64,000 bases of DNA, from positions 1 to 64,000 of the forward strand of contig JBNKBE010000026.1 of assembly GCA_050287085.1 (NCBI GenBank), written 5' to 3'. Every line of letters begins with the position of its first letter. The first letter of the stretch is position 1. The notes below the pieces were generated by a model that saw only the letters and a program-made list of their open reading frames with translations, was not told the origin of the DNA and ran no database searches. The translations under genes were made by a program, and so were the position numbers. This document shows, piece after piece, positions 27,121-48,094 of this stretch. This stretch comes from Polyangiaceae bacterium (lineage in GTDB: Bacteria > Myxococcota_A > Polyangia > Polyangiales > Polyangiaceae).

Positions 27121-27121
27121 G

Positions 27122-28555: not shown

Positions 28556-28576
28556 AAGGTCTCCGTCGTTCGGAAC

Positions 28577-30866: not shown

Positions 30867-32121
30867 CGCTTGGCTCCGGCGTGAACGTCGCGCAAATATA
30901 CTGCTCCAGCTCCCTGGCCTGGGTTGCCGATAGTTCGACCTTCCCCGGATGCGCGGCACGGCCTGGCGCTCCCATCAACCAGTGCGCCACTCCAACGTCG
31001 TACGCCGCGTGGGACAGACGACGCTCGCAAGCGAAGGCTAGAGCCGGAACGCGGTAGCCACCGCTGCCGCGTTCCGGCGACAGCGCCGCTAGTGCGTCGA
31101 CCTCGAGCTGCTCAAGGGAGGCCCAATCCCCCTCCCCGTATTCCCCCCGATGACATCCGCGACACTTCGCGTTGAAGGATTCCGCACCGCGACGCGTCGC
31201 GGCATCTGAAGGCTCCGGCCTCAAGAGGGACGAGCTGCTGAGATGCCAGATGAAGTAGGCGAGGGCAAAAGCCACGGTTCGAGGGGGACGGACCGTCTGA
31301 TGGGCGCTGGTGATGAGCAGCGTCTCGATGCGAACGGCCAGTTCGCCCAGACCGTTCTTTAGATTGCCGGTGTGGTGCAAGCGGGTTTGCAAGCGTGTCG
31401 CGCGGAGGTCCGCTATGGCCACAGGGTTATCCACCCCGTCTGGAGTTGTGTCGACGCGCCCCGGCCCCCAAATGGGACCGCGACCGAGCGCTGTGAGGTC
31501 CAGGTCCGAAGGAGCCCCCAGCCGGTATATGCCCGCATCGACCCGCGCGTGGCAGGTGGCGCAAGTGAGCGCGACGCCCTCTGTACCATCCGCATAACGC
31601 GCGACGACCAGCCCACCGAGCCAGCCCGTCGGATCCGACCAAAGACCGTACCTTTGAGCCAAGTCGACATCGAGCGCGCGGCCTGGCGCAAACACATGAC
31701 CCAACTCGAAGTGACGTTGCGCCGGGTAGCGTTCGAAAGCCCACCGCCCCAGAGCCATGAGCGCAGCATGAGACCAAGCTTCGAGTTCGGGTGCCGATTG
31801 AAAGACACCTGGCTGCAAGGTGCCGCCAACATCCGAAAGTGCAGCCACTTCGGGGTCAAACTCCGGAAGCTGGTCCCAGCCTGCTTCAGTCGCATAATTG
31901 TCCAGACGCAAACGTGCGTAGGTGTTGTCGGCAACCAGCAAACTGGACTCGAGCAGCCCCCGTCGGAAGGCGCCGCTTTCAGGGGTGCTGAACGCACGCC
32001 CTAGGGCCAGGGCGGACTCTTCATCTGTTGTCCTCTCAGCATCGTCTACGAGGAGCCCGTCCGGCGCGTTGCAGGCAATCGTCAGTCCAACTGCAAGCCG
32101 GGAGCCGATGTTGCGCCACAC
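30847..32121 (-). CDS. Di-heme c-type cytochrome lipoprotein
   Basis: Lipobox TIAC; two CxxCH motifs (CATCH, CRGCH); WGPGRVD and YRVPAL. Confidence 0.8.
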   Translation of the reverse strand: MWRNIGSRLAVGLTIACNAPDGLLVDDAERTTDEESALALGRAFSTPESGAFRRGLLESSLLVADNTYARLRLDNYATEAGWDQLPEFDPEVAALSDVGGTLQPGVFQSAPELEAWSHAALMALGRWAFERYPAQRHFELGHVFAPGRALDVDLAQRYGLWSDPTGWLGGLVVARYADGTEGVALTCATCHARVDAGIYRLGAPSDLDLTALGRGPIWGPGRVDTTPDGVDNPVAIADLRATRLQTRLHHTGNLKNGLGELAVRIETLLITSAHQTVRPPRTVAFALAYFIWHLSSSSLLRPEPSDAATRRGAESFNAKCRGCHRGEYGEGDWASLEQLEVDALAALSPERGSGGYRVPALAFACERRLSHAAYDVGVAHWLMGAPGRAAHPGKVELSATQARELEQYICATFTPEPSAMAPRN

Positions 32122-33379: not shown

Positions 33380-33880
33380 TCAGTGCGGCTGTCGCGCCAT
33401 GAGCGGCATCAACCGGAATTCCCCCGTTGCGACGATGATACCAGCCCCGCCCACTTCCACGTTCCGTGTGAATCCGTCGGAAGCGGGGCTGAAGCGCACC
33501 TGCAATCGCGATGCGCGGTTCATTGCATCGCCCTGCTGGATTAGGAGTGTCCGCTTGGGATCGAAGCCAGCGTGTTCGACTAGGTGACACAAGAGCGGCG
33601 CGGCGGCAGAGCCGGTGCCGGGGTCTTCAGGAACACCATGCGCGGGCGCGAAGACGCGGAGATGAGCGCCGGAGCCTTCTGCGTGGAACACATCGATGGT
33701 GTCCGCCGGCTGCTGAGCGAGAGCCGCCAAGTCTGGGGTCAGACGCTCCAGTGTTGCTCGGTCCGCTAGCTGCACCACGACATGACGCATTCCGTTGTCG
33801 TATTGCACAACGGGACTCGCGGTTTTTTCCACCCCGAGAGCGTCGAGCAAAGGCCGGCAGTCGGCGAAGGCGCCGGGCAA
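33380..33880 (-). pseudogene. PhzF family protein, C-terminal half only
   Basis: VFAPAHGVPEDPGTGSAA, QGDAMNRAS and VGG are present; no N-terminal PhzF domain is recognisable upstream. Confidence 0.65.
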
Positions 33881-34103
33881 AGGCGCGCTTCGCGCAAACC
33901 AACCGTGCGGTTCGGCTTTGCCAGAAGCCCGGTGTGTGGTTCGGGTTTACACTCGGCGACCCGAGACCTGACATGAAGCGCCGGTTTCGCGACGGGTTCG
34001 CGCGGGCGCGCCGCTACCAGGCTGGGTGATGAACAGGCTCAGGGACGCCGTGCGCGACCTTCACTCCACTCGGGGGCCGCGTGATGGGCCCCGCACGGAA
34101 GGT

Positions 34104-34179
34104 GTGTAGCTCACGCGCCCGGTGTAGCCCACGCGCCCGGTGTAGCTCACGCGCCCGGTGTAGCCCACGCGCCCGGTGT
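34104..34179. repeat. 18-bp tandem repeat gtgtagcYcacgcgcccg x4 with alternating T/C
   Basis: Directly visible, upstream of the MotAB operon. Confidence 0.9.
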
Positions 34180-34346
34180 TGCACCATGACGCGCGGGCCG
34201 CGTGTCCAGGCGAACAAGTGGTGGCGCTCGCCGCGCGGGGTTGCTAGCGTGGCGCGATGTCGTCCAGCAGCTCCGCGCGTGCGGCGAGGTGCCCACGCGA
34301 GCGTCCGAGAAGGGCCGGCAGGGCGACGAGCCCCTGGTCTACCCGC

Positions 34347-35000
34347 ATGGGCGGACGCCCTCGAGCGCTGCTCGTAGGAGTTCTATTCGGCCTGGGCCAA
34401 ACGGGCTGTTCCACCGTGTACCGACCGCTGGCCGGTTTGAATCGCCCAGTGGTGGTGGACATCGAGACAGAGAACTTCAAGGGGGTTACGCTCCGGCTCC
34501 AATGCCTACCGGGCGACGTCGTCGATGAGGCGGAGGCCCGCACCCTGTGTACGAAGCTTCAGCACCTGTTCGAGAACCAGGGCGCCAAAGTGACCGTGAG
34601 CACTTCCCTGTCGGAGGCGGAGCCTGATGAGCTCGGGGATGATGATGAGCTCGGGGATGAAGAGACCGCAGGGTCGCCAGCGCCTAACAAGAAAGCGGGC
34701 AACAGGCCGCAGCTGACCCTGCGTCTCGCCTCGCACCTGATTCACGAAGACGTCAGCAGCTACCTCTTCTTTGACGTCCGGACGGGCTACTCCTTCGCCC
34801 AAGAGGTCACGCTGACCGACGAGACAGGGTTTCTCCTTGTGCGGGAGCGCCTGACTGCCCAGTTCGAGGACCGGTTCATGGGCAGCCGGAACGGCGAGGA
34901 ATTTTCGCAAGACTTCTACCGACAACTGAGCCAGCTGGCGGTGAATGCGCACGTGCGCCGTCAGGTGCTCGTAGAGTCGGCCATCAACCGCAGCAAGTGA
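34347..35000 (+). CDS. Lipoprotein, gene 1 of the MotAB-linked operon
   Basis: Lipobox QTGC after MGGRPRALLVGVLFGL; alpha/beta pattern with an acidic loop. Confidence 0.75.
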   Translation: MGGRPRALLVGVLFGLGQTGCSTVYRPLAGLNRPVVVDIETENFKGVTLRLQCLPGDVVDEAEARTLCTKLQHLFENQGAKVTVSTSLSEAEPDELGDDDELGDEETAGSPAPNKKAGNRPQLTLRLASHLIHEDVSSYLFFDVRTGYSFAQEVTLTDETGFLLVRERLTAQFEDRFMGSRNGEEFSQDFYRQLSQLAVNAHVRRQVLVESAINRSK

Positions 35001-35006
35001 GAGACC

Positions 35007-35681
35007 GTGGCATTCTGGCTATTCGTCATCCTGTTCATGACTCCCGACCTGATGGAGGGCACGGAAAGCCCCCTAGAGGAAACCGTAGGGGAGGAGCGTC
35101 GCGCTCTGGATTGCGAGCCCTTGAGCATGGACGGAGCTCGCCACTATGCGCCCGGTGAGCTCGGGGAAAGCAGCCCACGCGGTGATTTCTTCGATCGCCG
35201 GGCCGTCGTCTGCCGGGAACGCATCATGAGCTCCTCCGTGCGGCGCTCCGACGACGACGCGGGCCAAGGCCTCCGGGGCCCGCAGGACGACGCAGTGATG
35301 TTGGGTTTGCGTCATACGGCGCGGGAGCTGGCGAGCCTCGTGGGACAGCTGACGCCGTTCGAGCAGCAGCGCACATGGCTGGTCGAAGCGCACTATCCGG
35401 GCACGGCCGTGAGCCAGAAGATCACTTTTGCCGTCAAGAACGAACTGCTCGACCGTGGTTTTCGCGTGACCGATCGGGCGCCGACCCTCGCCGTGGGTGA
35501 CATCGAGGTGCTGGGTCAGCTCGACCCAGCGCGTGCATATCCGCTCGCGTGCGAGCGCTACGTTGCGACCGGGTCATTGCGGCCGGGGGATGTGCTCCTG
35601 GCCGTAGTCCTCAGAGATCCGCGGGAGACGGCCCTACACGCCGGACTCTGCGTCGATGGCAAGTGGCGTTGGCTTCGATGA
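35007..35681 (+). CDS. Hypothetical exported or membrane-anchored protein (operon gene 2)
   Basis: Short hydrophobic N-terminus, four Cys, ATGA overlap with the next gene. Confidence 0.75.
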   Translation: MAFWLFVILFMTPDLMEGTESPLEETVGEERRALDCEPLSMDGARHYAPGELGESSPRGDFFDRRAVVCRERIMSSSVRRSDDDAGQGLRGPQDDAVMLGLRHTARELASLVGQLTPFEQQRTWLVEAHYPGTAVSQKITFAVKNELLDRGFRVTDRAPTLAVGDIEVLGQLDPARAYPLACERYVATGSLRPGDVLLAVVLRDPRETALHAGLCVDGKWRWLR

Positions 35682-36919
35682 GCGCACCCCAGTTTCCACC
35701 CGCCCTGCGCGACTTGCAGCGCCTCGGACTCGTCGCTTGGCGCTGGGTGCAACGGGTTGCGCTTGCGCTCGCGGTCCTGCTCCACAATGGGCCGGCCGCG
35801 GCGGAGCCCGCCACCGAGGCGCAAGAGTGGGAGCTCGCCAAGCTGCGCGCCCAGATTGCTGATCAGGTACAGCTCTCCGCCTACGACTTGCTCGACGAGC
35901 TGGTCTATCAATGGTCGCAGGCGCCCCCTTTCACGACGCCGACGCCCGTTTTCATCGCGGACGTGTCGGTGCCGGTGGGGCTCGGCACGGGCCTGCAAGC
36001 GCTGCTCGAGAATCATCTCGCGAACCTGCTGCTCGCCAACCCCACGACCCACGTGACCCTTTCACACTGCCCGGCGTGCACGGCCGTGGTGGTGCACAGC
36101 GGCAAGAGCGGAACGGTCATCTCTCGCGGCTTGGACAACCCGGAAGCGCTGGCCAAAGTGGGCGGGGCGGGGGGGCGTCACGGGCTGTACATCGACATTT
36201 CTGCCGAAGGTGCGTGGCTGGTGCTCCGCGCGCGCATCACCCAGCTCACGCCCGACCTGCCCGTGGTGTGGAGCCGCACGCTGACAACCACGGCTGGCAC
36301 GCCGCCGCTCCTTCGCAGCCCCGCTGAACTCAAGTCGGCCGAGGACGCGCGGGCAGAGTATCTGGACGCGTTGCAGGGTACGGGTCCGCTGACGTTCTTG
36401 ACCACGTTTGCCATGCGCAGCTACGAGGGCAACCCCTTCAGAGCTATTCCGCCGCCCATCTTGTGGCTGCAGACGGGCCTCGAGCTCGACCTCACCCAGG
36501 CTCGGGCCTGGAAAGGTAGCTTCGTATTGGGCGGTGCGTGGTTGCCCGACGCGTATATCGGCATGATGGCGCAGGCTCGCGTGAGCCGCTTGATCAGCGG
36601 CCAAGCTCGATCGCTGACTCACCCCAACCTCTACTTGTTTCTCGGTGGCGCTATCATGACGTTGGACGGTCCGGCGATGGCGGCGTTCAGGGTGGAGAAC
36701 GCAGAGCAGTTGCTCCGCGATGCGCAAGGCAACACCAGCACCCGGGCGAGCTTTGGCGCCTTGCACCTGGGCCTCGAGGCACGCGTCGGCAACCGCATTG
36801 GCGCCGCCGTGTTCTTGGAGAACATGCCGTACTACCAGAACTCGGGAGAACTCGGTGCCGTGTTGGATTTGGGCATCGAGCTGCACAGCCTGGGTTTCGA
36901 GGTGTCGCTGTGCTTCTAA
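35678..36919 (+). CDS. Exported protein with CxxC alpha/beta N-domain and probable beta-barrel (operon gene 3)
   Basis: Signal peptide, HCPAC, amphipathic strands and C-terminal LGFEVSLCF. Confidence 0.75.
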   Translation: MSAPQFPPALRDLQRLGLVAWRWVQRVALALAVLLHNGPAAAEPATEAQEWELAKLRAQIADQVQLSAYDLLDELVYQWSQAPPFTTPTPVFIADVSVPVGLGTGLQALLENHLANLLLANPTTHVTLSHCPACTAVVVHSGKSGTVISRGLDNPEALAKVGGAGGRHGLYIDISAEGAWLVLRARITQLTPDLPVVWSRTLTTTAGTPPLLRSPAELKSAEDARAEYLDALQGTGPLTFLTTFAMRSYEGNPFRAIPPPILWLQTGLELDLTQARAWKGSFVLGGAWLPDAYIGMMAQARVSRLISGQARSLTHPNLYLFLGGAIMTLDGPAMAAFRVENAEQLLRDAQGNTSTRASFGALHLGLEARVGNRIGAAVFLENMPYYQNSGELGAVLDLGIELHSLGFEVSLCF

Positions 36920-37989
36920 GCGTCGCTGTGCTTCTAGTGATTCGAGCCCGCGGTGCTTTGCTGCAGGCGCGTGCTTTGCTGCGGGCGCGTGCTTTGCTGC
37001 GGGCGCCTGTCTCTGGGGCGGGGCGCGTTGCGTTTCTGGTGCTTGGGTTGGTGCTCAGCTGGTCTCTACGCGTCGGCGCCGCCCCCGCCGCGACGAGCGA
37101 CGCGTTCGAGCGCCTGGAGGAGCTCTTGGAAGTGCGCCAAGAGGAGGGGTTGCTCGACGCGCGCGAAGTCGCACCGATCATCCTGGTCCGGGCCCAACCC
37201 CGCTACAGTGAGTCCCAGGGGTGGTTTCAGACGCGCGCAGCGGCCGTGCTCGTTCGTGTGTTCGGGGCGGGGAGCGTACGCTTCTGCGAAGCGTGTATGG
37301 CGCCGCGCACGGAAGTGCAGGGGGGGCGTCTCGAACAGCATACGGGACCCGTGAGCCTGGATGAAGTCGTAGCGCTGGATGACCGCTATCGCGGAGACTC
37401 TGAGCGCGCACGTACCGCGGTGTGGTTGGAAGAAACGGCCACGGGCATCTCGATCCGCATCACGGATCTGCGTTCTGCGCGGATCGTGTTCGCCCAAAAC
37501 GTCGACCCGTTGCTCGAGGAATACGACGGCGCGGCGCGCAACTTCCGGCTGAGTGAGGAGCTGGAGCGCCGCACCCGCGGGGAGAGCCTGACTCACGCCA
37601 TCTTCGACTTTGGCATCTTGCCCGCGCAGCACGTGGCCTTCGAGTGGGTCGAGCAGTGGGGGGAGAGCAACAACAACCTGACCGGGGTCGTGCTGTCAGC
37701 GTTCGACCCGGCGGCTGGGATAGGGGCTGCCTACCACCGGGTCCTGCAGTGGCAGAACATCACGGTTGGCGTAGAAGGTATCGTCAGCATCCCTACCGCG
37801 ATCGCGCAATCTGCCAGCGACACGGACGTGACTTTATTAGATCCTCTGTTCACGGCCGTCGGCGTCGTGCGCTGGCCGCTCTTCTCGAAGCACTCGAACT
37901 ATGGTGCCGTCTTGTCCCTCTCGACCAATGGTCGCTTGGCGATCGGCCTGTCTTTTCTCAACACCAGCTTCATCCCCATCCTGCCATGA
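36910..37989 (+). CDS. Exported protein with CxxC N-domain and probable beta-barrel (operon gene 4); start uncertain
   Basis: Signal peptide, FCEAC and strands GIGAAYHR, YGAVLSLS, LAIGLSF. Confidence 0.72.
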   Translation: MLLSVAVLLVIRARGALLQARALLRARALLRAPVSGAGRVAFLVLGLVLSWSLRVGAAPAATSDAFERLEELLEVRQEEGLLDAREVAPIILVRAQPRYSESQGWFQTRAAAVLVRVFGAGSVRFCEACMAPRTEVQGGRLEQHTGPVSLDEVVALDDRYRGDSERARTAVWLEETATGISIRITDLRSARIVFAQNVDPLLEEYDGAARNFRLSEELERRTRGESLTHAIFDFGILPAQHVAFEWVEQWGESNNNLTGVVLSAFDPAAGIGAAYHRVLQWQNITVGVEGIVSIPTAIAQSASDTDVTLLDPLFTAVGVVRWPLFSKHSNYGAVLSLSTNGRLAIGLSFLNTSFIPILP

Positions 37990-38777
37990 CGAACAGCCAG
38001 AGCATGAACCTAAAACCACCCAAGGTCGCGCGAGCGGTTGCCCTCAGCGCGTTTGCCCTCGCCATTGGCTCGGGGTGCGCCGCTCGCAACTACACGCACT
38101 ACTTGATCGAGCCGGCTCCGAAGAAGCCGAAGCCCTTGGAGGAGGAGCAGGGCACGCTGCAGCGGCCGTTCGGCTTCGGCTCGACCACGACGATGAAGAT
38201 CGCTTGGAACGACGGCGAGATGCTGACGGAGGTCGAGGTACCGATGTTGGCCAGCGGGCAGCGCATTGTCGTCGAGCACACGGGTCAAGCATCGGACGTC
38301 AAGACCATACCCGCCACGCGTCTCGTGCCGCCGGTGCCGACGGCGGCGGACAAGTCCCTGGAAGAGGCGTATCGAGCGCGTGGCTTGAAGGTGAAGGAGG
38401 ACGCGACCGCCGTCAGCATTTCGGGGTCACACACGCTGATGGTGCAGGCGCTCAAAGAAGGCAACTACCAGCTCGCTCTCGAACGGTGTGAGATGGTTCT
38501 GGCTCGCTACCCGTCACACCCGCAGTTCATGCGAGCCAAGGCGTCGATCTTGTTGCTCATGGGTGAACGTGACAAGGCGATCGAGCTATACGAAGCCGCC
38601 GAAGAGATCGAGAGCGATCCAGAGGTGCGCGCCACGCTTGAGCGGCTGCGGCAAGAGGAGGGTGCAAGTATCGGTGGAGCGGCCCCGGCGCCGTCGGCGC
38701 CTGCAGCACCCTCAGCGCCAGCGGCGCCAGCAGCGCCCCCCGCTCTCCCGGGCCGCGCAGCTGAGGAGGGGCGCTGA
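37986..38777 (+). CDS. TPR lipoprotein (operon gene 5)
   Basis: Lipobox GSGC; TPR GNYQLALERCEMVLARYP...GERDKAIELYEAA; ATGA overlap with the upstream gene. Confidence 0.8.
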   Translation: MTNSQSMNLKPPKVARAVALSAFALAIGSGCAARNYTHYLIEPAPKKPKPLEEEQGTLQRPFGFGSTTTMKIAWNDGEMLTEVEVPMLASGQRIVVEHTGQASDVKTIPATRLVPPVPTAADKSLEEAYRARGLKVKEDATAVSISGSHTLMVQALKEGNYQLALERCEMVLARYPSHPQFMRAKASILLLMGERDKAIELYEAAEEIESDPEVRATLERLRQEEGASIGGAAPAPSAPAAPSAPAAPAAPPALPGRAAEEGR

Positions 38778-39511
38778 TGCAACTGTTCGGCATAGCGCTA
38801 CTCGGCCTCGTCGTCTGGTTCTCCTTTCTCGAGCTTCCGCCGGGGCCGATCAAGGCGCTGGACTTGCACGCGCTCGTCATCGTGCTCGGCGGCTCGTTTG
38901 CGACCATGATCACCAGCTCGAGCGCCCGGGCGGCGCTGCAAACGGTGGTCTGCATTCGAGAGCTCATCCCTTTTGCAGGGAGCTTGCACGGCACCAGCCA
39001 GCGACTGGAGCAGGAGCGCGAGCGCTTCTCCCAGCTGTGGCGGGAAGGCAAGCGCGCCCAGGCTGTCGAACTGGCTGAGGGCAGCGAGCTCGTGCCCATT
39101 CGCAAGATGCTCGAGCTCGTGTTGGCGCGTGCGCCCAGGGAGATGACGGAGACTGAGTTTCTCAAGTTGCGTCACCAGGAGGTCAGCCGATGGCAGCCCG
39201 CCACGTCCAATTGGGAGGGCCTGGCCAAGCTCGGCCCCTCTTTCGGCTTGCTCGGTACGGTCAGCGGCATCGTGCAGCTCTTCGGACAGATGGGCAACGA
39301 TGACTTCGAGATCGGCACTTCGATGTCGCTTGCCCTGCTCTCGACCCTGTACGGCATTGTCCTCGGGACCGGTATCGCGGGTCCCGTCGGTCAGTACTTG
39401 AGAAATCTACTCGATGAACGCCTCGGGGCGCTCAGCCGTTGCCGGCAGAGCGTCGTGGAACTGGCAGAAACTCGAGGCCACGAGCCAGGTGGGCTGGAGC
39501 TGAGAGGCTAG
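38777..39511 (+). CDS. motA: MotA-type stator A subunit (MotA/TolQ/ExbB family)
   Basis: Four TM segments; VIVLGGS, GPSFGLLGTVSGIV and MSLALLSTLYG; 244 aa. Confidence 0.85.
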   Translation: MQLFGIALLGLVVWFSFLELPPGPIKALDLHALVIVLGGSFATMITSSSARAALQTVVCIRELIPFAGSLHGTSQRLEQERERFSQLWREGKRAQAVELAEGSELVPIRKMLELVLARAPREMTETEFLKLRHQEVSRWQPATSNWEGLAKLGPSFGLLGTVSGIVQLFGQMGNDDFEIGTSMSLALLSTLYGIVLGTGIAGPVGQYLRNLLDERLGALSRCRQSVVELAETRGHEPGGLELRG

Positions 39512-39513
39512 TT

Positions 39514-40140
39514 GTGGAATACCGGCGCCCCCCCGAAGACGAGCCGTGGCTACTGTCGTTTGCGGACCTGATGACGAACTTGCTGATCTTCTTCGTGATG
39601 TTGCTATCGGTTTCCGAGGTGAGCCAAACGCGCATGCAACAACTGACCCAGAGCCTCTCCGGAAAGACCAGCGAGACCAGTTTGGAAGCTATCCAAAAGG
39701 AGGTGGAGCAGGGCATCCGCGAGCGCAAGCTGGAAGAGCTGGTGTCGACTGAACTCAGTGATCGGGGCCTGGAACTGCGCCTGAACTCGGGCGTCGTTTT
39801 CGACTCCGGGCAAGCCGTCATTCGAGAGGAGTGGGTGACTACGATGGATTCGATGCTGCAGGCCCTGGTCCCCTATGCCGGTCGCTACCGCTTTGCGGTA
39901 GAGGGGCACACGGATACTCGTCCCATAGCGCCAGGTGGGCGATACGCCTCCAACTGGGAGCTCTCCTCTGCGCGTGCTCACGCCGTGCGTCAGCGCCTGG
40001 CAGCGCTCGGGATCGCGCCCGGTCGCACGAAGGTCGAAGGCTACGCGGATACGGTTTCGCTGCCGGCGGCTGAACTCGAGGGGCTTTCTGAAGCCGAGCG
40101 ACTCGCGCGTCACCGACGTGTCGTCGTGAGGGTGTACTGA
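39514..40140 (+). CDS. motB: MotB-type stator B subunit with OmpA-like peptidoglycan-binding domain
   Basis: WLLSFADLMTNLLIFFVMLL with the conserved Asp; VEGHTD, NWELSSARA, GYAD and RRV. Confidence 0.92.
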   Translation: MEYRRPPEDEPWLLSFADLMTNLLIFFVMLLSVSEVSQTRMQQLTQSLSGKTSETSLEAIQKEVEQGIRERKLEELVSTELSDRGLELRLNSGVVFDSGQAVIREEWVTTMDSMLQALVPYAGRYRFAVEGHTDTRPIAPGGRYASNWELSSARAHAVRQRLAALGIAPGRTKVEGYADTVSLPAAELEGLSEAERLARHRRVVVRVY

Positions 40141-41975
40141 TGAAGACGTTTGGAACTCTGCTGCTCGCGTGCGGCGCGCTGCTTTGTGCCGGAGCCGCCG
40201 CTGCCCAGTCACGATCCACCGCCGAACGACCCGTACCACAAGCGGTGCTGGCGCAGGTCCGGCAGGTAGAAAACGACTTTCGCCGCGCGCTGGCGCAAGA
40301 TTGCGCTCCCGAGCGGTGCTTCGCCAAAGTGTGCGTGCATGTTGCACACACCGTTGTCAACGCCCAGGAGTCGCACTCCTTGCCCGGGCTCAACCTGGAG
40401 CCGCCCCCCGGGCTGGGTGATACGCCAGGGCAAGTGCACCTGACGAGCGTCGAGTGCAGCTTTGCGCACGACCCCTCGGTGCGCGCCAAAGACGCCGCCG
40501 CGCTGGCCATGCGCTTGAAAGCCAAGCTCTCCCGCGCTTGGACGGACGTGGACGTCGTCTATGAAGAGCTGCCAGCGGTGCGCGCGGAGCTCAGCAAGTC
40601 GCCCTTGCCGGACCCCCAAGTGCCGTATCCGTACTCGCCGGCGCCTGCGCCGCCCGAGCCGGAGCTGAAGCCGGAGCCAGCGGCGGAGCCTCCGGCGCCC
40701 GAGCCGCCGCCATTGCCGGCATGGGACAACGCTCAGCCCAGTCGGGAGCTGTGGCTCAGTCTGCTCCCGCACTTCTCGTGGATGTTGGGGTTGGTACTTC
40801 TCACGTTTGCAGCATTGATCCTCATCTGGGCGGCCAGGCGCCTCGGACGCATGTCACCCGAAGAACAATTGCTCCTGTCGCAATTGGCTCAGGAAGGCGC
40901 TGGCACGTCGCCCTCTTCGGACGCGGCGGCGGCTGCCGAGGTGACCGAAAGCGAGCCGATGAAGCGCTGGCGTGCGCGCATGGAGGCGAGCGGCCAGAGC
41001 GGCAAAGCGGATCCGGCGCTGCAAGCATTGGTCAAAGATCTGCTGCGCCATCGCGAGTACGCCATGCTCGCCAAAGCGGCGTTGTTGTTCCCGGAGCAGC
41101 TCCCGAAGGCTTTCCCCGCTGACGGTGAGCTGGCCAACGCCCGGTTGGCGCTCGCCGAGTACCTAAAGGAGGCGGACACCGACCGCCTGCCCTCGGACGA
41201 GGCGTTTTTTGCCAAACTGGACCGCCACGCGGTGTCCGCGCAGCTGACGGCGGACGCCGATGCGGACCTGCTCCGCGGCTTGCACGACGACTTCGGAGCG
41301 CGGGCGCTGGTTCAGGCTCTCGACGTGGTGCCGGCCCGTCACGGGGCGCTACTGTTCGCCCATGCCGCAGTAGAGATGCAGCACGAGGCGGCTGAGCTGA
41401 TGAAGCCCGAGCGAGTCGCGAGCGTGGTCGACTCGCTCATGCGCTCCAATCGTGTCGATCCAGCCGAGACCGCTTATCTGTTGCGACTATTGGGTGCGCT
41501 CCGCACCGGGTCGGAGCTGCCCGCGGCGCCTGCCGTCGATGCCGTGTCCGACCGCGGTGAAGTGTTCAACGCGACGGCTGCGCTCTCCATACTGCTACCG
41601 CGACTCGCTCCCGAGCGGCGAAACCAACTGGTCGAAGCCGTGCGAACGCAACACAACGGCAAGCTCCCGAGTTGGCTGCGCGGCATCCTCTACGGGAAGA
41701 TGCTGCTGGAATTGAGTCCCAGCCAGCGCACGGACATCTTGCTCGAGGTGGAGGCTACCCAGCTGGCGTCCTGGCTGCAGGTGCAGGCCCAAGACAGCCG
41801 GGCCGCGTTGCTTTCCGAGGCGCCCGCCTCGCTTCAGGCCGCGCTGTCGGGCGCACGCGTGCCGAGCGCACTTCGCGAGCGCTACGCGCTCGCCGAAGCC
41901 GGCCGCGCGGCGCTGTCGGCCAGCTTGTTGCGTCGCATCGGACCCGATTTCGCTTTCCACACCCTGCTCGGCTGA
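40140..41975 (+). CDS. Single-pass membrane protein: periplasmic domain, Pro-rich linker, TM helix and FliG-like cytoplasmic domains
   Basis: Signal peptide and TM at about aa 205-232. Segments from about aa 376 and aa 517 follow FliG middle and C-terminal hydrophobic patterns (judged by eye). Confidence 0.6.
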   Translation: MKTFGTLLLACGALLCAGAAAAQSRSTAERPVPQAVLAQVRQVENDFRRALAQDCAPERCFAKVCVHVAHTVVNAQESHSLPGLNLEPPPGLGDTPGQVHLTSVECSFAHDPSVRAKDAAALAMRLKAKLSRAWTDVDVVYEELPAVRAELSKSPLPDPQVPYPYSPAPAPPEPELKPEPAAEPPAPEPPPLPAWDNAQPSRELWLSLLPHFSWMLGLVLLTFAALILIWAARRLGRMSPEEQLLLSQLAQEGAGTSPSSDAAAAAEVTESEPMKRWRARMEASGQSGKADPALQALVKDLLRHREYAMLAKAALLFPEQLPKAFPADGELANARLALAEYLKEADTDRLPSDEAFFAKLDRHAVSAQLTADADADLLRGLHDDFGARALVQALDVVPARHGALLFAHAAVEMQHEAAELMKPERVASVVDSLMRSNRVDPAETAYLLRLLGALRTGSELPAAPAVDAVSDRGEVFNATAALSILLPRLAPERRNQLVEAVRTQHNGKLPSWLRGILYGKMLLELSPSQRTDILLEVEATQLASWLQVQAQDSRAALLSEAPASLQAALSGARVPSALRERYALAEAGRAALSASLLRRIGPDFAFHTLLG

Positions 41976-41981
41976 TCTCTC

Positions 41982-44195
41982 GTGGCCTCTCGTGCGCTTT
42001 TCACACCCTGGTCGAAGTGGTTGCTGGCTCTTGCAACGCTCGCGGCTACGGCGTGCAAGGTGCCCATCAGTCAACTGAATGCCGAGTTCTCGTTGGCTGA
42101 CGCCTCGTGGTTCGAGGAGGAAGAGACGCTGTTTGTGTTCTACCAGGTGCAAGCAGAGCATGAGCTTGGCGCAGAGAGCGTAGTCGAGCTCCGCTACACG
42201 ACGGACGACGGGGTCACCCGCTGGCAGGAGCTGTCCAGTCTACCCCAGGTGCACCGTCACCTCGCGGTAGACTGCGGCGCTCGCACATTGTGTGGCAGCG
42301 GGAGCCTTCACGTGCCGCTCGAGCCCCGAGAAGTCCACCTGCGGCTGCGTTATCATCGGGACGGTGAGCTCGCGCTGCTACCCACCACCGCGTTCAACGT
42401 GGTGGGGCCCGGCGCGCCGCATACGAGTCGCAGCGTCTTGATCTACGGCGTTTTCGACAAACACAACCGCGCGCTGCAGTGGTGCGCGCGCCACGTCTTT
42501 CCCACCGTCCGCAATGAGCAGGCGGAGCGCCTAGGCCTCCGCCGCTGGTTCAAGGTCGAAGCACAGTGGGGTGACGACACGGTCGAGCCACGCGCCCAGG
42601 CGTCGTCGGTAGCGGATATCCCTGGGGCTCTCGGCCTCGGAGGGGACAGCGAGGCGCTCGACCCTGGGGCGAGCGGCGGGCCCGGCTCTCTCTTTCCGCT
42701 GGGGGGTACACCCGCGACGGCAAAGGACGACAATCCCTATCGTTATGGTGTGGACTGCGTCGCGCCGGAGACGACGCTGGAGCTAGTGCCCCCGGAAAGC
42801 GACGAACGAGCTGTCTTCAACGAGGAAGATCTTCCGAGCGCGGCGTCGGCGGCTACGCGCATCTGTGCCGAGGCCGTGGTGCAGACTGCCATCGGTCCTT
42901 TTAAGACCATTGCGGTGGCCCGAAAGAACCCGGAAGTGCGTCCGGCCTTTCCGGTCCTCCGCAGCCCCATCCAGGAAGCTACGCAGATCAAGTATCTGCT
43001 GTCCGTGTGCGAGCGCACCATCTCGGCGAAGCACCTGGCCATGCAGCGGCAGCGCCTCCAGTTGGAAGACGTCGTCCCAATTTGCATCGACGATTGGAAC
43101 GAGACGTTGTCCGACGCACTTGTCGAGAGACTGGCCAGCGACCTAGAGCGCGTCCGCGCGGAGGGCCACGACATGGTGCTCAGTATCGCATTGCATCATG
43201 ACACACCCGGGTTGCGCGCGGAAGTGGAGGAAGCGCTTGCGCTGGTACTCGCGCCGGAGCGTCAACGTACGACGCCCCGGCTGGCGGGCGCCTTCGTGTT
43301 CGATAGTGTGCCCTTTGCGGTAGATGATGCGACGGTGGGGCAGACTACGCTCTGGTGTCCGGCAAGCATCGTGCCGTCCACGGGTTCGGGGGGGGCGGGG
43401 GCGATGGACGGTGCGGCAGGCGGGGGCGGGACGGGGGGCGCGGGAAGCGAAGAGACATCTCCGCTTCAGGGCAACACCTCCATCGCTAGCCTGGCCTGCG
43501 TTGTCGTGCCGGATACGAGCCTGAGCTTGGGCCCTTTCTCCATCGCCGGTTTACCCATCTTGCCGTCGCGAACACAGTACCTGAAGTTCCTGGAGACCTA
43601 CTCCGACGACGAAGCGGGTCACGTCGAGTCGCTCGCTTTTCTGACGCCCGAGCTACCGCCCACGTCTGACGCGGTACCCATACCGCCCATCGGCATGGCG
43701 TCATTTCTCAATGATGAGTCGATCGAAGCAATCGCAACCGATGCTTTCTCCTTCTGCGGCTCTGCCGGCGAGTATCAGGGTTTCGTCTTCCGCTCGGCCA
43801 CCAGTCCTCAGCCCGTGCCGCTCGCCGCGTTGCCCGCGTGGCACAACGCGCTCAGCGAGACGAGTTACGATCTGGGCTTGGTCTGGGAGTTCCCATTCTT
43901 GTTGCGCCTCGAGTACGAAACGGCGATTGCAGCGGCGGTGAGCGCGTTTTCGGTGAGTGTGCCGTTTGGTTATCCCATCGATTCAGCCCAAGAGTTTGGC
44001 AGCAGCTTGTGGCTGTCCAACACGTTTCCGCTCGCAGAGAGCCTGACTCAGTGTCGGCGCTTCTGCGACCACCCCGCGTTCGACTCAGCGGGGGTCTACC
44101 AGGTCGGCGCGGGCTTCCGCACGCTCTACGCCAACAACTGCTACAAGCCTCGCTATCCGGAGCGAGGGGACTCGGGGTTTCCCAGTGATCCTTGA
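41982..44195 (+). CDS. Large Cys-containing lipoprotein (operon gene 9)
   Basis: Lipobox ATAC; 737 aa with Gly-rich linkers; no family recognised. Confidence 0.8.
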   Translation: MASRALFTPWSKWLLALATLAATACKVPISQLNAEFSLADASWFEEEETLFVFYQVQAEHELGAESVVELRYTTDDGVTRWQELSSLPQVHRHLAVDCGARTLCGSGSLHVPLEPREVHLRLRYHRDGELALLPTTAFNVVGPGAPHTSRSVLIYGVFDKHNRALQWCARHVFPTVRNEQAERLGLRRWFKVEAQWGDDTVEPRAQASSVADIPGALGLGGDSEALDPGASGGPGSLFPLGGTPATAKDDNPYRYGVDCVAPETTLELVPPESDERAVFNEEDLPSAASAATRICAEAVVQTAIGPFKTIAVARKNPEVRPAFPVLRSPIQEATQIKYLLSVCERTISAKHLAMQRQRLQLEDVVPICIDDWNETLSDALVERLASDLERVRAEGHDMVLSIALHHDTPGLRAEVEEALALVLAPERQRTTPRLAGAFVFDSVPFAVDDATVGQTTLWCPASIVPSTGSGGAGAMDGAAGGGGTGGAGSEETSPLQGNTSIASLACVVVPDTSLSLGPFSIAGLPILPSRTQYLKFLETYSDDEAGHVESLAFLTPELPPTSDAVPIPPIGMASFLNDESIEAIATDAFSFCGSAGEYQGFVFRSATSPQPVPLAALPAWHNALSETSYDLGLVWEFPFLLRLEYETAIAAAVSAFSVSVPFGYPIDSAQEFGSSLWLSNTFPLAESLTQCRRFCDHPAFDSAGVYQVGAGFRTLYANNCYKPRYPERGDSGFPSDP

Positions 44196-44232
44196 GCGCG
44201 GGACTTCTGAGCGCGGGACTTCTGAGCGCGGG

Positions 44233-45330
44233 ATGCTGGCGCTCCGGGGCTTGGCAGGCGGGAGCCCCCGGCGCAGCGGGCTCTGGGTGCTTCTGCTCGC
44301 CACTTTGGGAGCCGCTACGCCCGCATGGGCCGCGCTGAGCGAGCCTGCCGCGGGGGCACAACCGCTAGCCGCTGCCGAGCCCGAAGCCGCTATCGATACC
44401 GAAACGTCCGAGTCGGCTGGGGTGAACGTCGCTTCAGAGGCGTCCGGGCGCACCGGGGCGGCTGAAGGCGGAGCCAGCGCAGCGGAACCGGGCGCAGCGG
44501 AGCCAGGCGCAGCGGAGCCAGGCGCAGCGGAACCAGGCGCAGCGGAACCGGGCGCAGCACCCGAAACAACGCAGCCGCCGCCTCCGCTTGCGGCCGAAGG
44601 CCCCGAGCTGGAACACGAACCCGATGCGCGCGTGGACGCATACCGCACTCCGTTCGATGCCCTGATGCAGCGGTCAATCGGGAGCACGTCGCGGCGCGTG
44701 CTCTACGATTGGCGGCGCGCGAACTTGCAGCTGCGGGCCGTCTTCGCCATCCCTGCAGAGCTCAACAACTTCGAAAGCCGGCGCGCAGGTTTGGGGATCC
44801 GCGTGCCCACCGACGGCGTGTTGCTGGCGTTCGACGTTTCTTACGTGGCGGTCAGCGGCAGCGTCAGCAGCCGACAGCTGGCTCTGACGCCCTACCGTCA
44901 ACCGGGACGACCAACTCGTCTCCAAGTGGACGCGAGCTTGCTCTACCCTCTAGCCGAAGGGATCATGACGGCCGCCCGCGACTTCGTGCCCGACTCGGAG
45001 CTCGTCTTCAGCGCTGCCGGACGGCTCAGCTACCACTTCTATCCGTCGGCGTATCGCGACATGACGTGGACGCAGGCGCTGGCATCAACGGTTGCTCCCA
45101 GCCTTTCCGACAAGGCGCTTAGAAACTTGGCGCGCGCGGGGCTGCCCGGCATGGAAGTCGACAGGGCGCGCTACTCGCTCATGCTGGGGGTTGTGACGGA
45201 CGTGTACTTCCGTCGGGGTGCGTTCTTTGGGGTGGAGAGCTTGGTGGGGTTGCCGCTGCTCGGCTTTGTGACGAACACGAAGATGGACTACGGGTTCGAA
45301 CTCGGCATTTCGCTGGGGTTGTCCCTCTGA
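44233..45330 (+). CDS. Probable outer-membrane beta-barrel protein (operon gene 10)
   Basis: Signal peptide ending AWA, five AAEPG repeats, amphipathic strands and terminal YGFELGISLGLSL. Confidence 0.7.
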   Translation: MLALRGLAGGSPRRSGLWVLLLATLGAATPAWAALSEPAAGAQPLAAAEPEAAIDTETSESAGVNVASEASGRTGAAEGGASAAEPGAAEPGAAEPGAAEPGAAEPGAAPETTQPPPPLAAEGPELEHEPDARVDAYRTPFDALMQRSIGSTSRRVLYDWRRANLQLRAVFAIPAELNNFESRRAGLGIRVPTDGVLLAFDVSYVAVSGSVSSRQLALTPYRQPGRPTRLQVDASLLYPLAEGIMTAARDFVPDSELVFSAAGRLSYHFYPSAYRDMTWTQALASTVAPSLSDKALRNLARAGLPGMEVDRARYSLMLGVVTDVYFRRGAFFGVESLVGLPLLGFVTNTKMDYGFELGISLGLSL

Positions 45331-47384
45331 TGACCCCGCTCGCGGGAGCCTCGTACCCGGGCGACGAGGGCGCGAAGCGCAGCTGGGCGAAGCGCGCAGC
45401 TGGGACACGCGCAGCTGGGACACGCGCTGCCGGGACACGCGCTGCTGGGACACTTCTCGTGTTGGGGCTGCTGTCATGCGCCCACGCGCCGGGTGTTGGC
45501 ACTGCGCCGGATGTGGACACTGCCCCCAGCCCGCAAGCACTGACCTACTACAACGCGCGCCTAGCGCTGCGCGAAGAGCGTCCCTCGGAGGCACTGCGGT
45601 TTTGGTTGCTGCGCAACGCCATCGAAAGCGAAACGCGCAGGGTGAGTGCCCACGATGCGGATTTCCGGTCCGCCGTGTGGGTGGCGCTGGGTGATTCGGC
45701 GTTATGTCCGGACGGATTCCCCCGCGACTCGGCGGCGGAGGGGGGCGCCGGGCTCTGGCCGCTGGCGGTCCACAACTGGGTGGTGCACACGCGACTTCGT
45801 CCCGCGCCGGCAAGTGATAGGGCCCCCTTCGATGCCTTTGCGCACGGCTACCAGCGGCGCGACGTGCAGCTAGAAGACGTGCTTTCGGCGAAGGAGCTCG
45901 AAGCGCTTCGTTTCTCCCGCGGAGACTGCTGGCAACACCTTCTCATCCAGCAAGCGGCCGGCGTCTGGAGCACCAGTTTGCGCGAGCCAGATGCGGCTGC
46001 ACACGTCCTCCGTCAGTTGCTGCGCAGTGCCCTGGCAACGGTGCCGAAGGACCGCGTGGTGGGCCGGGCGGTCGTGGCCGCCCGGATCTTCGACTTGAAC
46101 CTCAAGCTCGCGCAGCTGGCCGCTCGCAAGCAGCGCAAGCAACAGCGCGAGGCGCGTCTTCGTGCCGGCGTCGTGGCAACGAGCACCCACGACGTGCAAG
46201 CCGTCCCCCTTGCTTCTGAAGAAGGCGCCATCCTGATGCAGAGCTTGAAGTGGTCGGCCGAAGAGTGGATGACGCTCTCGACCGAGCGACGACTGTTTCT
46301 CTTCGCCCACGCCGTCCGCGCGGCGCCCCACGCAAATACCGAGCGTCTGAGGCTGGCCATCATGGACGCTTTGATCAAACGTCGCCGAGGAGCGGAGCTG
46401 GAAGGCTGGCTGGCGTGGTGGGTGTCCGGCCCCGCCGAGCAGTCTGCGTCCTCCGGCGAGAGACTCGAAGCGCTGGAACGCGCCGTGTGGTCCGGTGAAC
46501 GCGGTGCCCAGCTGCTCGCCCTCGACCTGGAAAGCGGGTTCCGGGAGCGCGCCGTGATCGCCTTGCACCGCGGTATCGACGCGCTGACTCGCGGTGACCA
46601 GGCGGAGGCACTGCGTCTCTTGGCACATGCTCTGCGCTGGGCTGACGACTCGCGAGACGGAAACACGGTGAGGAACTTGGCTCGGCGCTGGTTGTCCTTC
46701 GTTGCGGCCCAGTTCCAGGTCACGGACGAGTTGTTGCTGATGCTGCGCAACGTTGCTCCACGGTCGGAGCTCTCGGCCATCTTGGAAGATCAAGTGTGGC
46801 ATGCCGCGTTCGCGGGCGACGCGGCATCTTTCGAGCGGTGTGCGCTTCATCTCGGTACGCGTGGTGCGCTGGCGCAGCGCGTGCAGCTTCTTCGGCCCCT
46901 AGCGCAAGACGACGCCGTCGCTTTCGTCACCACGCTGCGGACGGCAGACGAGAAGTCGCCCCAGCTTACGACGGCGCTCTCGAAACAACTGCTCGACCGG
47001 CTGCAGGCCGAGCCCGAACCAGTGCGCGTGCGCGAGCTCCCGCTGCTTCGTGAACTCGAGTCCTTGCTCGGGGAAAGCCTGGAGCGAGCTCAGGGCCGCG
47101 GGCGTAGCCAGCGCAAGAGGGAAGCAGTCCTGCTACAGATCCGCGCCCTCATCGAGGGCACGGCAGGGGTGGCAGACGACGAAGCCTCGCGCGCCCGCGC
47201 GTTGTCACCGGAGCGAGAGGTCTTCGTGGGCAGTCTGCGGCTTGCGCCGAGCGATCCGGTACCCTGGCCGTTCGTCGAACCCGAGCTCGAGGCTCCACCG
47301 GTATTTACTCCACTCCGGCTGCGGCCCGAGGAGTGGGCGGCTGCGAGCGGTGAGCTCGTCTTTGGCTGGAGGGTGAGCGACTGA
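45330..47384 (+). CDS. Alpha-helical (TPR-like) lipoprotein (operon gene 11)
   Basis: Lipobox LLSC after RAAGT repeats; long Ala/Leu/Arg helical repeats; 1-bp overlap with the upstream stop. Confidence 0.78.
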   Translation: MTPLAGASYPGDEGAKRSWAKRAAGTRAAGTRAAGTRAAGTLLVLGLLSCAHAPGVGTAPDVDTAPSPQALTYYNARLALREERPSEALRFWLLRNAIESETRRVSAHDADFRSAVWVALGDSALCPDGFPRDSAAEGGAGLWPLAVHNWVVHTRLRPAPASDRAPFDAFAHGYQRRDVQLEDVLSAKELEALRFSRGDCWQHLLIQQAAGVWSTSLREPDAAAHVLRQLLRSALATVPKDRVVGRAVVAARIFDLNLKLAQLAARKQRKQQREARLRAGVVATSTHDVQAVPLASEEGAILMQSLKWSAEEWMTLSTERRLFLFAHAVRAAPHANTERLRLAIMDALIKRRRGAELEGWLAWWVSGPAEQSASSGERLEALERAVWSGERGAQLLALDLESGFRERAVIALHRGIDALTRGDQAEALRLLAHALRWADDSRDGNTVRNLARRWLSFVAAQFQVTDELLLMLRNVAPRSELSAILEDQVWHAAFAGDAASFERCALHLGTRGALAQRVQLLRPLAQDDAVAFVTTLRTADEKSPQLTTALSKQLLDRLQAEPEPVRVRELPLLRELESLLGESLERAQGRGRSQRKREAVLLQIRALIEGTAGVADDEASRARALSPEREVFVGSLRLAPSDPVPWPFVEPELEAPPVFTPLRLRPEEWAAASGELVFGWRVSD

Positions 47385-47401
47385 AGCGCCCCAATTCCCC
47401 C

Positions 47402-48094
47402 GTGACGCTCCGCGGAAAGGCCCTCCGCTTGGAGCGCAAAGCGGCGCTCCAAGCGCGTCGCGCGGCGCTCGCTCAACGTCTTGCTGCCGTCCGGGCCGAC
47501 GTGCGCGACAAGAAGGCCCGCTTGCGTGCACGCGGTCCAGGGCAAGACGCGCGGCTACGTCGGCTCTGGCGCAAGTGGCTGCTGCTACTGCTGCTGGTCA
47601 TTCTCTTCTTCTGTTTGCGGCGTTGCCAAAGCTGTGAGCCAATGCCTCCCGCACCAGCGCCTGCTGACGCGGGATTGGACGCTGGCGCTCCGGCGTCGGC
47701 CTCCGTGTCATCGCCCGCGGCGCCCACTCGCGTCGCGAGGCCGAGCCCGCGGCGACCTACCCAGCCCGAGCCGCGTCCGACCTACGAGAGCAGCCCCCCT
47801 GGGCCCGAGCGCTGGCTGACCGATCTGCGCCTTCAAGTCGCTGCTCGCAGCCCGCGGCTTTCACGCTGTTTCCGCGGTGCCGAGCACCCCGGCGCCTTGC
47901 GTTGGACCGCGGTGGTCGATCTCACCCGCGGCGTAGCGTCCGATGCGCACATCGAGCTGCTTGGCAGCGCCCCGCCCTTGCCGAAGGCCATGCGGACTTG
48001 CCTCTTGGAGGTGCTGTCGGCCCCGTCGTACCGCTTGCCCCCACCGACCACCAATACGCCACCGCCGCGCGTGTCGCTGGTGGTGGAGTTCTAG
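47402..48094 (+). CDS. TonB/TolA/AgmX-like protein: basic cytoplasmic helix, TM, Pro-rich linker and TonB-C-like domain (operon gene 12)
   Basis: WLLLLLLVILFF TM and Pro-rich spacer, then LSRCF...LRWTAVVD..G...TCLLEVL...YRLP...VSLVVEF. Confidence 0.7.
   Translation: MTLRGKALRLERKAALQARRAALAQRLAAVRADVRDKKARLRARGPGQDARLRRLWRKWLLLLLLVILFFCLRRCQSCEPMPPAPAPADAGLDAGAPASASVSSPAAPTRVARPSPRRPTQPEPRPTYESSPPGPERWLTDLRLQVAARSPRLSRCFRGAEHPGALRWTAVVDLTRGVASDAHIELLGSAPPLPKAMRTCLLEVLSAPSYRLPPPTTNTPPPRVSLVVEF

Follow-up and report, generated by a model that had tools for sequence, protein, structure and literature searches.

We analyzed a twelve-gene operon in a 64,000-nucleotide stretch of DNA from a Polyangiaceae bacterium (GCA_050287085.1, contig JBNKBE010000026.1, positions 1 to 64,000 of the forward strand; hereafter, the window). 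The operon lies at positions 34347-48094 on the plus strand and consists of 12 co-oriented open reading frames (ORFs), named g01 to g12, with spacings of -11 to +17 bases according to the start codons re-chosen in this analysis. Comparison of homologous loci shows, at the level of sequence, that a flagellar-type MotA/MotB pair and a FliG-containing membrane protein (g08) are inherited together with nine further proteins, which are exported or lie in membranes. These genes very probably build one powered machine of the cell envelope that is not a flagellum. The system is apparently undescribed; its rotation and its output we infer. An earlier note, made from the sequence alone, had already recognized the twelve co-oriented genes, which are real, and had proposed that a MotAB stator, a membrane protein with a FliG-like part and an outer-membrane (OM) set of its own work together outside the flagellum. 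This core proposal is upheld by collinearity in 74 of 74 loci and by the 20 of 50 carriers that lack flagellin.

The GTDB genomes were scanned with an alignment of g08 and subtype-specific peptide patterns, a procedure that sees one subfamily only. A total of 74 loci were obtained, nearly all of them in Myxococcota, and the gene order of the window is kept in each one; conservation of the cluster, a check proposed in the earlier note, is therefore complete with respect to order. All twelve genes are present in 37 loci, the gaps in 31 others are explained by the end of the contig or locus, and six loci are exceptions. Three of the latter are L049 (without g01-g04), L079 (g02 under threshold) and L088 (without g12); the remaining three are considered below. 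Conservation of the twelve genes on this scale is far beyond chance. The flanks of the operon are not conserved, with only scattered short matches in the first 30 lines of the flank comparison. In a stricter first look, a g08 match was detected in 25 of 401 genomes of an even sample of the phylum, which is a floor. FliG_C matches occur in 18 of 22 strong carriers vs 174 of the 401 genomes overall, the carriers being kin and not independent of one another.

Flagellin was searched for in the genomes of 50 of the 74 carrier loci, being present in 30 and absent from 20. Among the carriers without it are Archangium minus Cbm 6 and A. gephyra SDU49, both with complete genomes, as well as A. lansingense, A. 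violaceum and Hyalangium versicolor. None of these five cultured carriers has a rod domain (5/5), and their MotB-plug genes all belong to this operon or to a second, related one that two of the five possess. Each of the five also has two FliP/SctR genes and TIGR04565 barrels of its own. The host of the window (6.2 Mb, 96.8% complete) is flagellated, with five flagellin-domain matches, one FliG and two MotB-plug matches in its genome; flagellin and FliG_C are located on contigs C21/C1 and not on the operon contig C26. Contig C21 carries FliF, FliG, FliH, FliI, two FliM/N-domain genes, FliP, FliR, FlhA and FlhB (46 of the 56 listed ORFs scanned). It also bears the genes for hook, rod, P-ring, cap and flagellin and a motAB pair, so that the stator of the operon is a second one. 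Within the window, a Pfam scan of 47 ORFs revealed no flagellin, hook, rod, export or chemotaxis families, in agreement with the earlier note.

The stator is encoded by g06 (38777-39511) and g07 (39514-40140). Protein g06 is a MotA-type A subunit of 244 amino acids (aa; PF01618, E 2.9e-14), and g07 is a MotB of 208 aa with a plug (MotB_plug, E 5.6e-16) and an OmpA-like domain (OmpA, E 1.2e-12), so that both assignments of the earlier note, including the conserved Asp, hold. This residue, Asp18, which we take to be the equivalent of D32 in Escherichia coli, is invariant in all 28 aligned homologues, and the OmpA-like domain keeps the GHTD, N-x-x-LS-x-x-RA and RRV motifs. Among NCBIfam models, PomA, MotP and MotA were the best for g06 and MotD, MotB and MotS for g07, all below cut-off, while the tolQ model reached only E 0.056. 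All 68 complete GTDB copies have a distance of 112 residues between the Asp and GHTD, as do five of five copies of a second subtype and four of four copies from a second phylum (both described below); it is 111 in locus L214 and 110 in L281. By comparison, it is 141 in the flagellar MotB of the host and, of 49 presumed flagellar MotBs, the 37 that could be measured have 135-211. The linker of the operon MotB is thus fixed and 23 or more residues shorter and, being short and free of insertions, suggests that the geometry is fixed and that the subtypes share an origin.

In the operon MotA, position R93 is basic (Arg/Lys) in 30 of 30 sequences and E101 is acidic in 28 of 30, the two lying eight residues apart in a register that the alignment does not fix relative to flagellar MotA. 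The available part of PMC12505986 gives the same eight-residue spacing for R90 and E98 of E. coli MotA. Trees were calculated with quick IQ-TREE and FastTree runs from sequences of two phyla, in which branches are long and the MotA_N matches are presumed to be flagellar. Eight Exb/Tol-type paralogues separated from the operon MotAs, which fell on the MotA side (support 98, in a quick tree with long branches). Relative to the MotAs presumed to be flagellar, the operon MotAs branched outside (support 82 for 54 rows and 85 for 33 rows), and they never stood beside the flagellar MotA of the host. These trees exclude a recent duplicate, without establishing a sister-group position. Nesting of the operon MotAB within flagellar stators, which the earlier note had listed as an outcome that would speak against its proposal, was not observed: the operon MotA groups apart, and the host flagellum has its own MotAB and FliG.

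The candidate rotor is g08 (40140-41975), a protein of 611 aa. It contains a signal peptide (residues 4-22), a ring-building-like domain (26-147), a Pro-rich linker and a membrane helix (214-232, from hydropathy), followed on the cytoplasmic side by a FliF C-terminal-like motif (275-308) and a FliG N/M/C-like region (305-606). Its AlphaFold model, based on 70 sequences, has a mean pLDDT (predicted score in the local distance difference test) of 84.9 and a predicted template modelling score of 0.55. In this model the N-terminus is a hydrophobic helix, residues 34-143 form a compact alpha-beta-beta-alpha-beta domain and the cytoplasmic region is helical. Pfam matches within the operon are confined to g05, g06 and g07, with MgtE_N in g08 just below cut-off. 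The seven top Foldseek matches of the g08 model are FliG chains (best E 1.5e-3, probability 0.99, 343 columns). In VIA-align superpositions, FliG-C fits residues 515-604 (87 residues at a root-mean-square deviation (rmsd) of 2.6, Z 10.3), FliG-M fits 374-456 (80 residues at rmsd 2.2, Z 8.7) and full FliG fits 305-608 (Z 9.1, with a high rmsd from domain motion). Profile-profile comparison of a 114-sequence alignment of the g08 family with 31 flagellar FliG sequences aligned 305-606 with 37-324 (probability 97.8, E 1e-12). All three FliG domains, N, M and C, are therefore present in g08 by structure and profile and are kept in every subtype, and the FliG-like cytoplasmic region suspected in the earlier note is well founded. 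That note had missed the ring-building-like periplasmic domain and the FliF-like C-terminal motif. Comparisons of the single g08 sequence with FliG and FliF of the host were not significant, and a PDB sequence search with the g08 profile returned nothing under E 0.2.

Other parts of g08 were compared with FliF. Residues 275-308, directly before the FliG part, match the C-terminal end of FliF (probability 47.9, E 1.9e-4). The periplasmic domain superposes on the S-ring domain of FliF (8z5v, Z 8.7, rmsd 4.3, 98 residues; 6scn, Z 7.9) and on EscJ (Z 6.9). It carries an insert of 28-33 residues between strands 1 and 2, the position at which, in the available part of 10.1101/023564, the inserts of the third ring-building motif (RBM3) of FliF and of SpoIIIAG are also placed. 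Modelling of four copies of g08 26-156 gave a head-to-tail arrangement in which one copy makes contact through both of its faces, with the conserved R125 and L144 at the best contact. The score was 0.42 (runs 0.50, 0.26 and 0.42) vs 0.02 for the best control, with contact agreement of at least 66% and pLDDT of at least 72. Among proteins of known structure, the mark for self-association was reached by 20 of 30 whose structures are pairs of one chain and by 1 of 23 whose structures are single chains; for g08 these counts are only rough, and the model may have memorised the solved rings of FliF and EscJ. The insert position and the head-to-tail model together favour a ring-building domain in g08. 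A full FliF is not present: g08 has a signal-peptide-like start and one periplasmic domain, without the first membrane helix, RBM1 and RBM2. The succession of ring domain, helix, FliF end motif and FliG corresponds to the fliF-then-fliG order of flagellar operons, and g08 has the appearance of a natural FliF-FliG fusion. Genome G355 (contig C12, L179:7994-10573) has a full-length fusion of this kind, 859 aa long, inside an ordinary flagellar cluster and followed by FliH- and FliI-like genes as read by eye, which provides a precedent for the fusion step within the phylum. Another genome of the same family (G280, contig C60) has an 872-aa open frame over its FliG.

Relatives of the operon form a wider family. 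A weak match in one genome (G025) led to a second subtype, whose g08-like gene is present in 27 of 43 genomes of family f20. It comprises eleven genes in the same order in six of six genomes examined: an immunoglobulin (Ig)-like lipoprotein, a TIGR04565-like barrel, a large helical protein, a barrel-like protein, g03-like, g05-like, motA, motB, g08-like, a lipoprotein and g12-like. Homology between the two subtypes is firm for g03 (probability 96.5), g05 (97.6) and g08 (the three together spanning 96.5-98.5), as well as for motA and motB, and weak for the rest. Two paralogous clusters coexist in two of the five cultured flagellin-less carriers, where a second, subtype-2-like cluster occurs in addition to subtype 1 (L281:4591-14602 in A. 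gephyra SDU49 and L282:4375-14048 in A. lansingense). In the second phylum (that of G432, Silvanigrellaceae), g08 orthologues were detected in 22 of 104 genomes; the exact twelve-gene order is found in G515 and G544, and a rearranged one in G489 and G506. A distant g08 homologue is also present in Pseudobacteriovorax antillogorgiicola (WP_132324293.1). The g08 profile additionally matches a long form in 62 of the 104 genomes, with open frames mostly of 740-1000 aa. These appear to join two periplasmic repeats and a helix to FliG, and a six-row alignment of the long form matches FliG (probability 98.3) and subtype-1 g08 (52.5). Searching for its homologues yielded 10 proteins. The g08 profile also matches frames of 330-350 aa, at E 1e-14 to 1e-17, which are most likely ordinary FliG. 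In one of six loci examined, the long form follows g03-like, g05-like, motA and motB. This is L214:4864-11141 (G432, contig C70), a five-gene version whose long form has 922 aa, and the same genome carries the twelve-gene subtype too; the g03 match to this locus is weaker than that to subtype 2. Stand-alone long forms of ~740-850 aa with no stator nearby lie beside housekeeping genes in L211, L213, L216, L218 and L219, and a gene that is presumably PilM-like occurs within a few genes of the long form in L213, L216 and L218. In a 1.8-Mb genome of the same family as the host (G094, contig C1, ~1786400-1788100; L024 and L030), the g08 homologue is broken by several stops, which suggests decay of the system in a reduced genome.

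The other operon proteins are exported or membrane proteins. Four lipoproteins had been proposed in the earlier note, three of which are conserved as such: a lipobox-like Cys was found in 25 of 33 homologues of g01, 13 of 22 of g05 and 36 of 48 of g09, vs only 3 of 37 of g11. Protein g01 (34347-35000, 217 aa) has an invariant Cys21 and a fold without assignment, a Pfam scan of all members giving no consistent family and a PDB sequence search no match. Protein g05 (37986-38777, 263 aa; TPR_19, E 1.5e-7), a core gene product, is among the best conserved proteins of the operon (49-70% identity) and is the one confirmed member of the two TPR-like lipoproteins proposed; no TPR match was obtained for g11 (45330-47384, 684 aa), a large exported and probably helical protein. 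The large, Cys-rich lipoprotein g09 (41982-44195, 737 aa) is a candidate surface adhesin, whose model (pLDDT 85.1) contains tandem Ig/fibronectin type III-like domains, an alpha/beta domain and a C-terminal beta region. Its structural matches are generic Ig folds only (Z at most 6.9), and the alpha/beta and C-terminal parts are barely covered. Protein g02 (35007-35681, 224 aa) is exported and has four invariant Cys residues and no family match.

As to the three OM beta-barrels of the earlier note, the case is good for g03, moderate for g10 and weak for g04. The core gene g03 (35678-36919, 413 aa) encodes an N-terminal LpoB/CsgG/TolB_N-like domain and a C-terminal barrel, and ends in Phe in 34 of 34 homologues; g10 (44185-45330, 381 aa), a probable barrel, ends in Phe or Leu in 39 of 42, and g04 (36937-37989, 350 aa), for which a barrel is uncertain, in Pro in 36 of 37. 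ESM Atlas neighbours, taken as leads only, carry OMP_b-brl, LpoB and CsgG for g03 (scores 0.94-0.95) and LpoB, CsgG and OMP_b-brl for g04 (0.91-0.93), with TolB_N among the neighbours of both; the nearest clusters for g03 are Myxococcota and Bdellovibrionota proteins. The direct match between g03 and g04 reaches only E 0.011, and the g03-like protein of subtype 2 matches both, so g04 is probably a distant paralogue of g03. No consistent family emerged when every member of g03 and g04 was scanned with Pfam, and PDB sequence searches with profiles of g01, g03, g04 and g09 gave nothing under E 0.2. One of five members of g10 scanned matches NF049866 weakly (E 0.01). The subtype-2 gene at the relative place of g10 matches TIGR04565 (E 4.8e-15, under cut-off), a model which we take to represent GltA/B/H-type barrels and thus a link to Glt; it matches g10 only at E 0.057, and g03, g04 and g10 themselves have no TIGR04565 match. 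An amphipathic-strand score for barrels was dropped, as it failed to separate barrels from other proteins. The last gene, g12 (47402-48094), encodes a bitopic inner-membrane protein of 230 aa with a TonB/GltG-like layout (a basic N-terminus, a membrane helix at 60-78, a Pro-rich stretch and a folded C-terminal domain), and one of six family members has a weak TonB match on the Pro-rich part (E 0.0057). The TonB/AgmX likeness in the earlier note is based on this layout; neither g12 nor six homologues match AgmX/PglI (NF033768). Short tandem repeats were noticed near or inside the 5' ends of operon genes (34132-34180, 36960-37005, 44195-44235, 44470-44560 and 45375-45450), giving low-complexity N-terminal stretches in g04, g10 and g11.

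On the explanation that we prefer, the operon would build one envelope-spanning, ion-driven machine derived from the flagellar motor core and working without a flagellum. A MotA5B2 complex would conduct protons via Asp18 of MotB, with the OmpA-like domain holding the stator at a fixed short distance from the wall. Copies of g08 would join side by side through the ring-building-like domain into a small hoop resembling the MS ring, with FliG fused beneath, an arrangement proposed to need neither a FliM/FliN switch nor an export gate. The turning MotA pentamer would engage the FliG ring of g08 through an altered interface, and the work would pass via the TPR lipoprotein g05, g11 and the TonB-like g12 to an OM platform (g03, g04 and g10) that may display or move the Ig-domain lipoprotein g09. 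The likeliest use would be to move or present an adhesin at the surface, in the service of surface movement or of contact with prey; this output ranks first because the part list parallels Agl-Glt, which is an analogy only. We give this explanation as a whole an even chance. That the stator drives a g08 ring is slightly favoured over its opposite, while the adhesin-moving output, argued by analogy, is a tentative suggestion that we consider rather less probable than not. A geared rotary machine on a flagellar core, in which stators turn a one-protein FliF-FliG ring without switch, export gate or filament and the torque works an OM adhesin platform, is possible, with a likelihood a little short of even.

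Several observations weigh against this explanation. The torque-helix charges R281 and D288/D289, present in 31 of 31 flagellar FliG sequences, are absent at the aligned positions of g08: residue 564, aligned with R281, is Ala, Ser or Thr in 70 of 70 sequences, and 571-572, aligned with D288/D289, are small residues with no acidic one among the five commonest. Their absence counts against a canonical stator-rotor interface. No FliM or FliN was detected in the operon with Pfam and NCBIfam, and a FliFG ring without them is described as flexible in the available part of PMC10941966. The 70-sequence alignment of subtype-1 g08 alone matches FliG with a probability of only 12.2. C-terminal domains of cation transporters fit the periplasmic domain of g08 better than FliF does (MamM, Z 9.9-10.0, rmsd ~2), so that this fold alone is not decisive, and no sequence match to RBM3 of FliF was obtained with the g08 profile. 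The self-association score of g08 lies exactly at the mark, with one of three runs at 0.26. No stator occurs within 20 kb in five of six long-form loci, and in three of the 74 loci part of the operon is missing though the DNA is present (g09-g12 in L034 and L094, g01-g05 in L084). In addition, carriers already have Glt-type barrels elsewhere, and the output is reached by reasoning only.

The main rival explanation draws on some of the same facts. It describes a non-rotating scaffold, in which the stator would act on the TonB-like g12 and pull OM barrels while a degenerate g08 ring docks or positions the stators. The lost torque-helix charges, the missing FliM/FliN, the TonB/GltG-like layout of g12 with its counterpart in subtype 2, the short and fixed MotB linker and the frequent occurrence of the long form without a stator are all in its favour. 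It does not readily account for the preservation of all three FliG domains in every subtype or for a MotA that keeps its cytoplasmic region with the conserved Arg/Glu pair. Moreover, no g12-profile match was found in the rearranged loci L215 and L217 or in the available contig part of L214. We regard pulling through g12 as unlikely, although worth serious attention. Energised secretion or surface display, similar to type IX secretion, would use the motor to export or release lipoproteins such as g09 via the CsgG-like and barrel parts, with no movement. The resemblance of g03 and g04 to LpoB/CsgG-plus-barrel proteins and the three conserved lipoproteins are consistent with such a role, and the available part of PMC13104615 offers a precedent, a rotary 5:2 motor that powers secretion in Bacteroidota. 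The barrels are small, however (proteins of ~270-410 aa), with no large translocon, and no cargo genes travel with the operon, whose flanks are not conserved; we consider this reading improbable.

A device that reports rather than works, whether an envelope or contact sensor or a Zorya-type anti-phage system in which ion flow signals contact or wall damage, might explain the patchy distribution (the 25 of 401 phylum genomes, a floor), the two paralogous clusters in two of five cultured carriers and the match of MotB to ZorB models. It is hard to reconcile with the lack of a ZorA match, of a long MotA tail and of a PADLOC match for the other 11 proteins, and the operon contains no cytoplasmic effector, kinase or regulator; its probability is quite low. 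Lowest of all is the probability that the operon serves as an accessory to a flagellum or type III secretion system whose genes lie elsewhere in the genome. The host is flagellated and flagellin is present in 30 of 50 carriers, FliG_C is more frequent among strong carriers (18/22 vs 174/401, with kin not independent), the five non-flagellated carriers have two FliP/SctR genes each, and the Chlamydia FliF-FliG fusion is linked to its type III system. Nevertheless, the operon is intact in 20 of 50 carriers without flagellin, complete genomes included, the host flagellum has its own FliF, FliG and MotAB, and g08 lacks the RBM1/RBM2 region that surrounds the export gate.

Part-by-part comparison led us to reject membership of the operon in the flagellum, Agl-Glt, Zorya and Ton/Tol systems; the earlier note had likewise judged that AglRQS, ExbBD/TolQR and Zorya do not fit, which agrees with the plug and OmpA-like domain of MotB, the missing ZorA match and the absence of a long MotA tail. 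With the flagellar motor core, the operon shares MotA, MotB with its Asp, plug and OmpA-like domain, the full FliG fold and, in g08, the ring-building-like periplasmic domain, helix and FliF-like end motif in the FliF-then-FliG order. It differs in that the FliF part is one domain and one helix with a signal peptide, fused to a FliG without the torque charges, in the shortened MotB linker, in the absence of FliM/N, export gate, rod, hook and filament, in its nine non-flagellar partners and in its occurrence in non-flagellated species. With Agl-Glt, the gliding system of Myxococcus in the same phylum, it has in common an ion-driven motor, several small OM barrels, TPR proteins, a TonB-like bitopic protein and a surface lipoprotein (part list from the available parts of PMC11761067 and PMC13104615), and the subtype-2 barrel resembles TIGR04565. 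Its motor is of MotAB type with plug and OmpA-like domain rather than the TolQR-type AglRQS, it includes a FliG-containing protein, no subtype-1 protein matches TIGR04565 or NF033768, and the carriers have separate Glt-type barrels.

FliF-FliG fusions, both of Chlamydiaceae and in Salmonella and Vibrio constructs, also join a FliF-derived membrane protein to FliG, and those of Salmonella are reported to support rotation in the available parts of 10.1101/023564 and PMC10941966. The Chlamydia fusion is the closest printed precedent; it has ~330 aa, lacks RBM3, contains a FliG-M-like part only and has no stator described, and the laboratory fusions work inside a whole flagellum, whereas the operon version has all of FliG, its own stator and its own OM set. 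Zorya is similar in its 5:2-type pair and the OmpA-like domain of the B subunit, and the operon MotB matches ZorB models in PADLOC, which found no match for the other 11 operon proteins; the operon lacks ZorA, the long MotA tail (its MotA has 244 aa) and ZorC/D/E, having FliG-containing and OM partners instead. ExbBD-TonB and TolQRA likewise combine a MotA/TolQ/ExbB-family channel with a TonB-like bitopic protein and OM barrels. The B subunit of the operon has a plug and an OmpA-like domain, its A subunit falls on the MotA side, and no TonB-dependent receptor is encoded in the operon; the available part of PMC12505986 defines the ExbD/TolR-type B subunit as one without the plug-linker and OmpA-like domain.

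No description of the operon was found in the literature, chiefly open-access, the search not extending to supplements (that of PMC12505986 could list these MotAs), and the word myxococc* is absent from the available parts of PMC12505986 and PMC13277936. The former, a phylogenetic study of 2025, counts the plug and OmpA-like domain of MotAB and the torque interface among the traits specific to the flagellum in its available part. The plug and the OmpA-like domain, and perhaps the MotA side of the interface, are seen here beside a FliG-containing membrane protein, in genomes without flagellin, rod or other MotB. If the stator drives g08, FliG-based torque has a second use, in a one-polypeptide rotor, and the operon would offer a minimal system in which to study how stator and rotor are geared, as well as a testable path by which the flagellar motor could have evolved. 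Should the stators really branch off outside flagellar MotAB, the operon would also be a living model of a stage with stator and rotor that is simpler than the flagellum. The geared rotary machine, if true, would amount to an organelle for surface motility or contact with prey, so far undescribed, in predatory Myxococcota and Oligoflexia-like bacteria. The five cultured Archangium and Hyalangium carriers named above, and P. antillogorgiicola with its g08 homologue, are available for such work.

Upstream of the operon, no sigma-70-like promoter was found in 33800-34400. The window also contains, at 49921-56812, a likely iron/metal uptake cluster (a DUF5122 beta-propeller protein, imelysin, an HTTM/VKGC-domain protein and a TonB-dependent receptor) and, at 25502-29493, an NAD salvage locus with nicotinamide phosphoribosyltransferase, a Nudix hydrolase and a divergent NrtR regulator. 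A 1071-aa protein with a von Willebrand A domain is encoded at 20387-23602, 11 kb upstream of the operon, and a cytochrome c-like protein of ~424 aa at 30847-32121 on the minus strand, also upstream.

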